Part shown: positions 47,397 through 52,464 of the stretch, one piece after another
How the letters are laid out: each line of letters begins with the position of its first letter
Numbering within the stretch: the stretch's first letter is position 1
Source: Octopus vulgaris
Taxonomy: Eukaryota
DNA length: 64,000 nt
Assembly (NCBI GenBank): GCA_951406725.2
Contig: OX597823.1
Span: 99,758,001-99,822,000, forward strand
Direction: 5' to 3'
Position numbers and translations under genes: made by a program
Notes under the pieces: model-generated
The model's input: only the letters and a program-made list of their open reading frames with translations
Told to the model about the DNA's origin: nothing
The model's database searches: none

Positions 47397-47894
47397 CGTT
47401 TAAATATTTGTTGTGCAAGATTTTTTATGTGAAGTCGTGTGTTGAAACAGATATTGTTATATTTCGGAATGGTCATATTGCCAGTTTAGCCAATAAAAAC
47501 ACACGCACTATATATTTGGTGTTATTTTGCTTCAGTGATATTTATTTTTTACATTAATCTTAATCTTATTTCGGCCAAAGTTCTTTCGTCACACTCCTGT
47601 GACCGCATCAGTGGTCCTTTGTTTTCTTCTCACTTACTTGTGTAATACAATAGAAATACTTGTAATACAATAGAAATACAAAATGGCTGACGGTTAGTAA
47701 GGAGAGACACAAGTAAGTGAGAAGAAAACAAAGGACCACTGATGCGGTCACAGGAGTGTGACGAAAGAACTTTGGCCGAAATAAGATTAAGATTAATGTA
47801 AAAAATAAATATCACTGAAGCAAAATAACACCAAATATATAGTGCGTGTGTTTTTATTGGCTAAACTGGAAATATGACCATTCCGAAATATAAC
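47397..47894. mobile_element. Fold-back element: 188-bp inverted arms (47456-47643 and 47707-47894), each with a hammerhead-like motif; Penelope pLTR-like
   Basis: 1 mismatch between arms; the 63-bp spacer contains a ~19-bp direct duplication (tgtaatacaatagaaatac). Confidence 0.7.
47733..47777 (+). ncRNA. Variant minimal hammerhead-like motif (C3:G8, non-canonical C9); mirror copy at about 47573-47617 on the minus strand
   Basis: ggacca-CTGATGC-G-GTCACAggagTGTGAC-GAAA-GAAC-TT-tggcc; stem I is only 3 contiguous bp. Confidence 0.4.
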
Positions 47895-49536
47895 TATATA
47901 TATATATATATATATATATATATATATATATATATATATATACATATATATATATATATATATATATATATATATATATATATATATATATATATATATA
48001 TATATATATATATATATATATATATATATATATATATATATATACACATATATATATATATATATACACATATATATATATATATACACATATATATATA
48101 TATACACACACATATATATATATATATATACACACACACATATATATATATATATATATATATATATATATATATACACATATATATATATATATATATA
48201 TATATATATATATATATATATATATATATATATATATAAAATATATATATATATATATATATATATATATATATATATATATACATATATATATACATAT
48301 ATATATATATATATATATACATATATATATATATATATATATATATATATATATATATATATATATATATATATATATATATATATATATATATATATAT
48401 ATATATATATATATATATATATATATATATATATATATATATATATATATACATATATATATATATATATATATATATATATATATATATATATATATAT
48501 ATATATATATATATATATATATATATATATATATATATATATATATATATATATATATATATATATATATATATATATATATATATATATATATATATAT
48601 ATATATATATACATATATATATATATATATATATATATATATATATATATATATATATATATATATATATATATATATATATATATATATATATATATAT
48701 ATATATATATATATATATATATATATATATATATATATATATATACATATATATATATATATAAATATATATATATATATATATATATATATACATATAT
48801 ATATATATATATATATATATATATATATATATATATATATATATATATATATATATATATATATATATATATATATATATATATATATATATATATATAT
48901 ATATATATATATATATATACATATATATATATATATATATATATATATATATATATATATATATATATATATATATATATATATATATATATATATATAT
49001 ATATATATATATATATATATATATATATATACATATATATATATATATATATACATATATATATATATATATATACATATATATATACATATACATATAT
49101 ATATATATATATATATATATATATATACATATATATATATATATATATATATATATATATATATATATATATATATATATATATATATATATATATATAT
49201 ATATATATATATATATATATATATATATATATATATATATATATATATATATATATATATATATATATATATATATATATATATATATATATATATATAT
49301 ATATATATATATATATATATATATATATATATATATATATATATATACATATATATATATATATATATATATATATATATATATATATATATATATATAT
49401 ATATATATATATATATATATATATATATATATATATATATATATATATATATATATATATATATATATATATATATATATATATATATATATATATATAT
49501 ATATATATATATATATATATATATATATATATATAT
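47895..49536. repeat. (TA)n array
   Basis: Directly visible. Confidence 0.98.
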
Positions 49537-49746
49537 AGGTAAACAGTAAAAATAATTACAGACATGGACAAGAACATGAAACACCACAGAGACGACACAA
49601 GAACCACAGGACGGGACATTCGAAACCCTCAGTCATCAGTCAAGAACCAGATCATCTTAGCAATTTCGGCTGATTAATCTTGAGATTGCTCCTATATGGG
49701 CAGCCCGCCAGGGGAAATCTAAGCCAAGCGCATTAGATCCCCTGGA
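49537..49746 (-). mobile_element. Truncated inverted copy of the 45070-45790 element
   Basis: Reverse complement of 45581-45790; same terminus (…tttacct|(AT)n). Confidence 0.85.
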
Positions 49747-50477
49747 TATATATATATATATATATATATATATATATATATATATATATATATATATATA
49801 TATATATATATATATATATATATATGTGTATATATATATATATATATATATATATATATATATATATATATATATATATATATTATATATGTGTATATAT
49901 ATATATATATATATATATATATATATATATATATATATATATATATATATACATATATATATATATATATATATATACATATATATATATACATATATAT
50001 ATATATATATATATATATATATATATATATATATATATATATATATATATATATATATATATATATATATACATATATATATATACATATATATATATAC
50101 ATATATATATATATATATATATATATATATATATATATATATATATATATACATATATATATATACATATATATATATACATATATATACATATATATAC
50201 ATATATATACATATATATACATATATATATATATATATATATATATATATATATATATATATATATATATATATATACATATATATATATATATATATAT
50301 ATATATATATATATATATATATATATATATATATATATATATATATATATATATATATATATATATATATATATATATATATATATATATATATATATAT
50401 ATATATATATATATATATATATATATATATATATATATATATATATATATATATATATATATATATATATATATATA
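49747..50477. repeat. (TA)n array
   Basis: Directly visible. Confidence 0.98.
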
Positions 50478-50800
50478 ATAGTTATCGCCATACTAATATG
50501 GCATTCTTATAAAAATAAGAATAAAGCTGTCCGCTTATTAGCTCCATGAGGCCATCGCCTTAAGTTAGCTATTTGATACACAAACTGTATCCATATAACC
50601 TTCAACAAGGGAGGTCAGTCGCTCCACACTACTTGACCGGCAGCTGCAGACGCGTTTCGGGGTATTGCCCCTTTTCAATGCAGCGTAGCCAGACAGTAGG
50701 TGTCGCTTCTGACAATCTCTGTTCGAAGGTTTTATTTACCTAGCTTCGGTGGAATACATCCACTTGTTTTCAATAATAGAAATATTAAAATTTATATATA
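50478..50800 (-). mobile_element. Short hammerhead-carrying element in (TA)n (Penelope pLTR or retrozyme-like)
   Basis: Unique island between TA arrays containing a complete minimal hammerhead. Confidence 0.6.
50643..50684 (-). ncRNA. Minimal type-I hammerhead ribozyme, U3:A8 variant
   Basis: Minus strand GCTGCA-TTGAAAA-GGGGcaataCCCC-GAAA-CGCG-TC-TGCAGC: perfect 6-bp stem I, 4-bp stem II, palindromic ACGCGT stem III, GUC cleavage triplet. Confidence 0.8.
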
Positions 50801-51661
50801 TTAAAATATATATATGTATATATATATATATATATATATATATATATATACATATATATATATATACATATATATATATATATATATATATATATATATA
50901 TATATATATATATATATATATATATATATATATATATATATATATATATATATATATATATATATATATATATATATATATACATATATATATATATATA
51001 TATATATATATATATATATATATATATATATATATATATATATATACACATACATATATATATATACACATACATATATATATATATACACATACATATA
51101 TATATATATACACATACATATATATATATATACACATACATATATATATATACACATACATATATATATATATACACATACATATATATATATATATATA
51201 CACATACATATATATATATATACACATACATATATATATATATATACACATACATATATATATATATATACACATACATATATATATATATATACACATA
51301 CATATATATATATATATACACATACATATATATATATATATATACACATACATATATATATATATATACACATACATATATATATATATATATACACACA
51401 CATATATATATATATATATATACACATACATATACATATATATATATATATACACATACATATACATATATATATATATACACATACATATACATATATA
51501 TATATATATACACATACATATACATATATATATATATATATACACATACATATACATATATATATATATATACACATACATATACATATATATATATATA
51601 TATATATATATATATATATATATATATATATATATATATATATATATATATATATATATAT
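50801..51661. repeat. (TA)n array grading into a CACATACA(TA)n minisatellite
   Basis: Directly visible. Confidence 0.97.
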
Positions 51662-51662
51662 A

Positions 51663-52041
51663 CTAGCAGTATCGCCCGGCGTTGCTCGGGTTTGTAAGGG
51701 AAATAATTATATAAGCATTTTTAGAGATGTAAAGTATAATAGCCATCTCAATATGGCTAACCACAAAGGGCGAGGGGTGTTACTGTAGCTTTTTACGTTC
51801 TGAGATTTAATAATAAATTTTAGAGAGTTACTTCCCTTATATATGTCAAAAATGGATTAAAAATGGGGAAAATTGATGGTAAATTTTTTTTTAAATCGTA
51901 GACTCATCGTAGACGCGCGCTAATACCCAGACGGTCTCGATATGAATCACGACTTGGTTAAACTGCACCGCAAAATGTGGGAGTAGTTAGGAATGTAAAT
52001 GGTAGGAGACAGACACACAACCTCACTTTTATATATAAAGA
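51663..52041 (-). mobile_element. Non-autonomous Helitron
   Basis: Minus strand A|TCTTTATATATAAAA … cccgagcaacgccgggcgatactgCTAG|T; 3' ~65 bp shared with 26816-27199. Confidence 0.8.
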
Positions 52042-52139
52042 TTTCCTCTATTTACATAATATTGAGGTCTCTTTCTTTCTTTTGTTATCTTACTGTTTTT
52101 ACCAATATACATATATATATATATATATAAATATATATA

Positions 52140-52464
52140 TAGTTACAGAGATGTACTTGCATAGCAAGTGACTTGATCTGAGATCGTGTGCTGGAACGAA
52201 AACAGTTGCAGCGTTGAAGGTGTTTATAAGCCATCTAAGAAACACACAAAAACCGTTAGATTCACTTCAACATTTAAATTTAATTTGTCAAAATATTTTC
52301 GTCGCTTTGAGACCGCGACCTGTTAGCACGATATTTTTGTCAGTGAACAGGTCGCGGTCTGAAAGCGACGAAAATATTTTGGCAAATTAAATTTAAATGT
52401 TGAAGTGAATGTAACGGTTTTTGTGTGTTTCTTAAATGGCTTACAAACACCTTCCACGCTGCAA
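52140..52464. mobile_element. Fold-back element: 119-bp inverted arms (52206-52324 and 52346-52464), 21-bp spacer, flanked by (TA)n
   Basis: About 6 mismatches between arms; a hammerhead spans the spacer and right arm. Confidence 0.75.
52336..52386 (+). ncRNA. Minimal type-I hammerhead ribozyme, G3:C8 variant with one extra nucleotide after A9
   Basis: TTTGTCA-GTGAACA-G-GTCGCggtctgaaaGCGAC-GAAA-ATAT-TT-TGGCAAA: 7-bp stem I (one G:U, which is Watson-Crick in the mirror arm), 5-bp stem II, palindromic AATATT stem III. Confidence 0.65.

Follow-up and report, generated by a model that had tools for sequence, protein, structure and literature searches.

Minimal hammerhead motifs with different 3:8 core pairs and their repeat families at a (TA)n array of Octopus vulgaris

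The minimal hammerhead ribozymes (min-HHRs) of metazoan Penelope-like elements are an already published class, with an extra core base, a U3-A8 variant and cleavage as dimers; in the text of its 56-motif alignment, position 3 is only C or U and position 9 only A (PMC4209133). Natural hammerheads with U3-A8 and with U15.1-A16.1 have also been reported (PMC3088659), and the term non-LTR retrozymes is in use for non-coding hammerhead units in tandem arrangement (PMC7229834; bioRxiv 10.64898/2026.07.22.740005). The pair between core positions 3 and 8 is described as forming solely in the active hammerhead conformation (PMC3884650). The hammerhead of an Anolis Penelope element is reported to have cut only with its protein, and either C3G or G8C abolished cleavage while the double change C3G/G8C partly restored it (PMC11167929). 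Targeting of (TA)n and the clade features of Penelope-like elements have been described together with a list of octopus Naiads (PMC8557442). Here we analyse a stretch of 64,000 nucleotides from Octopus vulgaris (assembly GCA_951406725.2, contig OX597823.1, positions 99,758,001 to 99,822,000 of the forward strand; hereafter the window), in which a sequence-only reading had proposed three hammerhead-shaped motifs with different 3:8 pairs on non-coding islands between (TA)n arrays.

We conclude with considerable confidence that each of these motifs lies at the 3' end of a different repeat family, here called A, B and C, and that B and C are sister retrotransposons with a reverse transcriptase (RT) and a GIY-YIG endonuclease. 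The motifs are likely min-HHRs of the dimer type, and their 3:8 pair is likely to have been selected in the source elements.

Three motifs and the families that carry them

All three proposed motifs were recovered in the window by a descriptor scan (Table 1). Each forms the min-HHR three-way junction with U4-G5-A6, G12-A13-A14, A15.1-U16.1, H17 and G10.1-C11.1, and each folds locally into stems I and II by folding prediction. The family A motif has the core UUGAAAA(G), stem III ACGCGU and a stem I of 6 bp; that of family B has the core GUGAACAG, stem II GUCGC/GCGAC, stem III AAUAUU and a stem I of 7 bp; and that of family C has the core CUGAUGCG, stem II GUCAC(A)/(U)GUGAC, stem III AGAACU and a stem I of 3 bp. 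The B and C cores, previously given as seven letters, are 8 nt long, with one additional G ahead of stem II. Position 9 is A in families A and B and C in family C, which lowers strict min-HHR membership for family C only. The short palindrome of stem III is perfect in A and B and has a central A-A mismatch in C. Together with the linkage to RT/GIY-YIG frames described below, this anatomy fits the earlier assignment to the minimal type-I hammerheads of Penelope-like elements and retrozymes. Searches with the CUGANGA pattern, expected to miss two of the three motifs, do miss these and in fact miss all three, because position 9 of family C is C and not A. At E up to 10, none of the three island stretches matched an Rfam hammerhead family, nor was there one among the 150 of 268 matches listed over the window.

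Could the folds be chance matches in AT-rich palindromic DNA? We assign this a negligible probability. A descriptor blind at positions 3, 7, 8 and 9, which was composed after the motifs had been seen, found 4 matches in five islands. Over 1000 dinucleotide shuffles the mean was 0.007 matches, and as many as 3 were never obtained. Chance would allow for the weak z-scores with which the window copies fold (-1.0 to -1.9) and for one doubtful additional match of the blind descriptor at 24093; however, a young family B copy has a z-score of -3.7, and the shuffle test, the family-wide fixation of the motifs and their position behind an endonuclease frame refute this explanation. The window motifs exceed chance.

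Families B and C are autonomous Penelope-like elements. Free-standing copies of family B extend via a long 3' untranslated region into an endonuclease frame, one of which is open over 1025 amino acids, and the G3:C8 motif lies behind the frame, about 1.0 kb downstream, in 12 of 15 coding loci and in all nine with long frames. Longer copies of family C, for which a protein search gave 6,722 candidates, likewise run upstream into an RT-GIY-YIG frame (the best protein match, labelled Octopus vulgaris, is 99% identical); the frame is open over 1311-1312 amino acids in 4/4 loci, which had been picked for length, and the motif follows the RT-endonuclease frame at about 0.5 kb in 22 of 30 loci, with the exact core in 20. 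The proteins of B and C are 57% identical over about 700 amino acids, and the two families are sisters with support of 99/100 in a protein tree of relatives plus one in-genome outgroup, contrary to their earlier description as unrelated islands. Both show what is expected of endonuclease-positive (EN+) Penelope elements, namely one long frame in which RT is joined by a GIY-YIG endonuclease at the C terminus, a CCHH motif in the translated endonuclease with a cysteine linker ahead of it, and 5' truncation, inverted or tandem copies of the pseudo-long terminal repeat and an optional 3' tail. The Pfam RVT_1 match of their frames falls under the curated cut-off, and their Atlas neighbours carry RVT_1, HTH_animal and GIY-YIG. 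Two other clades were considered and rejected for B and C: the Hydra clade, in which CCHH is absent and the motif is DKT (B and C have CCHH and DKS), and the Naiad clade with its N-terminal endonuclease, which is C-terminal here.

The family consensus sequences might have lacked the proposed cores, a possibility raised along with the sequence-only reading. Among fetched copies, however, the 3:8 pair is Watson-Crick in 71 of 75 for family B, C3:G8 in 80 of 84 for family C and U3:A8 in 41 of 41 for family A. The exact G3:C8 pattern has 6,133 matches in the genome and its reversed control has 0; G3:C8 is the fixed state of family B.

Family A consists of short tandems of a 362-bp unit plus inverted truncated copies, without a coding frame, and its genome copies (1,396 candidates) are 96-100% identical. 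There is one type-I hammerhead per unit, at a 362-bp spacing. The family is likely a retrozyme-like, non-autonomous Penelope derivative, and all three motif families likely belong to the known Penelope group. Sequences of families A and B also occur in four contig runs of uncertain kind, which are uninformative on transcription, ends or circles. In fetched loci, a pair of stem I of the family A motif (50643-50684; L014) is G-C in 19 and G-U in 30; an A on the 5' side, present at one locus and in individual contigs from other runs, would make the series from G-C through G-U to A-U complete.

A further non-coding family, D, is present in the window with a unit of about 779 bp, partial tandems, 5' truncation and a 3' tail; 15 of 20 ends lie at (TA)n, and the top 40 of 2,402 candidates are all 100% identical. 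Relaxed scans of either strand found no hammerhead fold in it, just a core-like CUGAUGA...GAAU stretch. Family D behaves like a non-autonomous Penelope derivative. The GIY-YIG profile search of the genome also turned up several other Penelope-like families, along with an intact one of 781 amino acids (L310:745-3087, DKG type, many copies), which has a U3:A8 hammerhead-like stretch near its 3' end with a very weak stem I (read by eye).

Pairing of positions 3 and 8 across and within families

Three neighbouring motifs prove little, and the homologous positions were therefore tested in relatives. A metagenome contig scan with a 42-protein alignment yielded 80 loci, of which 43 had a usable frame end and 32 at least 150 bases downstream. 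The blind descriptor matched 15 of these 32 usable 3' regions, leaving 17 without a match, and all 15 hammerheads are Watson-Crick at 3:8 (8 C:G, 5 U:A and 2 A:U). Shuffled 3' regions gave 0.15 matches per round, one third of them paired at 3:8. With family B added, all four Watson-Crick pairs occur, and a hand count on the protein tree, in which several nodes are unsettled, gives about six to seven paired 3:8 changes; two relatives, L222 and L255, were read by eye and used for the tree only. Stem II also shows paired changes between families (GUCAC/GUGAC in C against GUCGC/GCGAC in B). Among subfamily-level variants of B and C, sampled from top matches and thus from a biased set of copies, none of the 76 core and stem columns is changed, compared with 18 of the 313 columns in the flanks (p 0.03); changes within the motifs lie in loop II or at H17.

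In the relative L211, the hammerhead 113 bases behind the frame has U15.1-A16.1, and its stem III is a perfect palindrome. A further hammerhead family, with a canonical 7-nt core, C3:G8 and a longer stem III, stands as an inverted pair at L202:334-486.

The swap from a C-G to a G-C core pair in more than 6,000 copies suggests, as far as sequence comparison can tell, that self-cutting has been kept by selection. Both partners of a pair confined to the active fold have changed together on several occasions, one of them the change from C:G to G:C that separates the sister families, which argues for long-term selection on catalysis. We consider it possible, though less likely than not, that one Penelope-like clade has sampled all four Watson-Crick 3:8 pairs and tolerates C9, and that an octopus family has fixed a still active G3:C8 in thousands of copies.

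Several observations weigh against selected cleavage. The 15 paired relatives are not 15 independent events, because they share ancestry. Within family B, 172 matches are changed at position 3 only, 364 at position 8 only and 16 at both, and 7 of these 16 double variants pair, where the first 100 rows in each list of single changes would predict about 5.5; inserted copies look like they decay neutrally, regardless of 3:8 pairing. The mismatch G3:G8 makes up 43 of the 100 first-listed position-8 variants, against 16 for the other transversion, is present in about 150 genomic copies and stands on both arms of some inverted insertions; being frequent and on both arms, mismatched templates have therefore probably transposed. 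Family C has weak points in its stem I of 3 bp, its C at position 9 and its imperfect stem III palindrome. When whole islands are folded, the hammerhead stems of the three window copies all have probabilities close to 0, although the isolated 3' ends of B and C do form them with a probability of 0.5-1.0; the copies in the window are likely inert by these predictions. The activity of such motifs in vitro is reported to be low (PMC4209133, PMC11167929). Linked Penelope RT/GIY-YIG frames, proposed as a check on the sequence-only reading, are present in families B and C and were not found for family A: 10 loci fetched by the GIY-YIG profile search were without family A sequence, save one with a separate A insertion alongside, and tblastn of 120 relatives against 30 family A and 20 family D loci gave one unrelated opposite-strand fragment only.

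Three sublineages within family B were sought and rejected. An ancestral C3:G8 sublineage finds no member among the 16 double variants, six A3:U8 copies differ in subfamily background and do not form a derived sublineage, and 20 G3:G8 copies read by eye lack the common diagnostic changes of a private subfamily.

These points bear on an alternative that we consider unlikely, in which motifs of Penelope hammerhead descent no longer cut and their fold survives as a signal for protein binding or reverse transcription, or simply by inheritance. The benefit of hammerheads to Penelope-like elements is debated in any case: they have been suggested to just parasitize the element, and Naiads are described as spreading without canonical hammerheads (PMC8557442), while insertion in vitro proceeds without cleavage (PMC11167929). 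The propagation of G3:G8 copies and the C9 of family C, a departure from the A9 of all rows in the text of the published alignment (PMC4209133), agree with such a loss. On the other hand, positions 3 and 8, which pair in the active conformation only (PMC3884650), have kept their pairing over repeated changes, and C9 is no one-off decay, because it recurs in relative L210 together with U3:A8 and a C9-G linker identical to that of family C. The ribozyme of the source elements would most likely be working yet not strictly essential.

The (TA)n setting and the Helitron-like carrier

Table 1. Features of the window (positions are those of the whole stretch)
Feature	Position	Strand	Remarks
(TA)n array holding islands	43468..51662		8 kb; shared insertion target
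Family C insertion	47397..47894		Inverted 3'-end copy with tail joined to 5'-truncated sense 3' end
Family C inverted arm with tail	about 47397-47643	-	
Family C sense arm	about 47665-47894	+	
Inverted twin of family C hammerhead	47573..47617	-	Exact; absent from the sequence-only reading
Family C minimal hammerhead	47733..47777	+	C3:G8 and C9; one additional G; cleavage predicted after 47772
Family A island	50478..50802	-	325 of 362 bp of non-coding tandem unit
Family A minimal hammerhead	50643..50684	-	U3:A8; stem III palindromic; cleavage predicted after 50649
Helitron-like non-autonomous composite with family B fragment	51663..53575	-	5' TC at 53575; 51663 end with hairpin followed by CTAG; inserted between A and T
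Family B fragment	52142..52464		Imperfect palindrome of element's 3' end; whole core in right arm only
Family B minimal hammerhead	52336..52386	+	G3:C8; one additional G; stem III palindromic; cleavage predicted after 52379
Family D copies	45055-45789; 49538-49746	+; -	
LINE-like (long interspersed nuclear element) stretches	40198-43496; about 59385-63000	-; +	On either side of the TA arrays; recognised by eye in the sequence
Decayed hammerhead-like motif	58336-58380	+	C3 with A8 unpaired, palindromic stem III

The islands are gathered in the window because all families favour (TA)n. Within the 90 bases after a 3' end, (TA)4 or more is present in 41 of 70 cases for family A (internal tandem junctions counted), 21 of 35 for family B and 23 of 31 for family C, compared with 19.5% of distal flank windows holding (TA)4 or more, so that microsatellite targeting, a part of the sequence-only reading, is borne out. 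Mixed neighbours were seen again at other TA arrays (L014, L022, L062, L198 and L311), and the clustering of the three motifs is best read as a common landing site. The decayed motif at 58336-58380 is probably the end of another Penelope-like family.

Helitrons are recognised by a 5' TC, a 3' hairpin followed by CTRR and insertion between A and T. On these end features, we take the composite that holds the family B fragment to be Helitron-like. The same flanks accompany the top 30 matches to the window B copy in 30/30, and the fragment is therefore cargo of a larger element. This carrier measures 1.6-2.3 kb, with the hairpin and CTAG end in 30/30 loci and the TC end in 29/30, between A and T. 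It has multiplied the captured Penelope hammerhead fragment (1,347 candidates, with the 40 top matches identical over 143 bp); head-to-tail junctions occur in six loci, and a shorter element sharing its 3' end stands alone at L105.

The three neighbouring islands are thus independent arrivals, one of them inside Helitron-like cargo, and the cluster alone therefore carries no covariation signal. The compensatory covariation proposed for it is real across families, as the relatives show, and is not to be seen in the three islands themselves. Equally, we regard as very improbable the proposal that the islands are uncatalogued short microsatellite-targeting ribozyme retroelements whose clustering is functional, for example through trans cleavage between neighbours. 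It would be in line with the short non-coding tandem units of A and D, for which the above searches found no coding partner, and with the absence of the motifs from Rfam. However, the B and C islands derive from long coding elements, of which they are the 5'-truncated ends, and this largely refutes it for these families; moreover, the B copy is Helitron cargo, mixed neighbours recur elsewhere, and tandem non-coding hammerhead units are already known as retrozymes (PMC7229834; bioRxiv 10.64898/2026.07.22.740005). Nor are B and C expected to pair with each other, because their stems III differ.

Proposed function and comparison with known systems

By analogy with described min-HHRs, source transcripts with two motifs would pair between copies through their palindromic stems III, probably aided by the element's protein, and the paired motifs would cut after U16.1-H17 and release unit-length RNA. 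The G3:C8 core of family B would act in the manner of the laboratory rescue mutant. The window copies would be inert, gathered via the preference for (TA)n, with the G3:C8 copy imported as Helitron-like cargo.

The element class itself is known, not new. Probably new are the core variants, that is, G3:C8 fixed in a high-copy family, C9 in family C and the occurrence of all four Watson-Crick pairs. A natural G3:C8 hammerhead was not found in the literature texts searched, and an earlier description is possible. Lunse et al. (2017) are said to have reported a very large set of such hammerhead variants. Families B and C provide a natural matched pair of opposite 3:8 states in one genome, and both the CUGANGA and UUGANAA descriptors and Rfam miss whole high-copy hammerhead families. 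If the sampling of four pairs and the fixed G3:C8 hold, they would be comparative evidence for selected cleavage, pattern searches would be missing a large share of Penelope hammerheads, and a natural fixed G3:C8 would stand beside what is otherwise, in the literature searched, only an engineered rescue mutant.

The closest described systems are the min-HHRs (PMC4209133), which share with the window motifs a 3' site behind RT-GIY-YIG, a short stem I, G10.1-C11.1, a palindromic stem III, a base between 9 and 10.1, the U3-A8 variant, opposite-strand copies and mostly truncated single copies. The extra base is G in nearly all motifs here as opposed to H in the published consensus, and that alignment text contains neither the G3:C8 of family B nor the A3:U8 of relatives nor the C9 that family C shares with L210. 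As described for the Neptune and Nematis clades (PMC8557442), B and C have an RT, a cysteine linker and GIY-YIG with CCHH, along with 5' truncation, an inverted 5' copy and a tail, and their (TA)n preference likewise goes with the linker, to which it is tied in the CX2-5CxxC-linker clades. In contrast to these clades, B and C read DKS and GAAIG/GGAIG in frames of 1,000-1,300 amino acids, the likeness being one of clade description; in the protein tree they sit on a long branch from the 781-amino-acid DKG-type element of the same genome. Family A resembles the non-LTR retrozymes (PMC7229834; bioRxiv 10.64898/2026.07.22.740005) in its 362-bp non-coding unit, short tandems and single type-I hammerhead per unit, whereas its motif is minimal with U3:A8 and not canonical, and its truncated and inverted copies are dispersed in (TA)n. 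The carrier of the B copy is like non-autonomous Helitrons that capture flanking DNA in its 5' TC, 3' hairpin and CTAG, A|T target and head-to-tail junctions, and differs in that its cargo includes a Penelope 3' end with a hammerhead. Finally, the base pair swap of family B is identical to that of the engineered C3G/G8C rescue mutant (PMC11167929; PMC3884650), but is natural, fixed and represented by more than 6,000 genomic matches.

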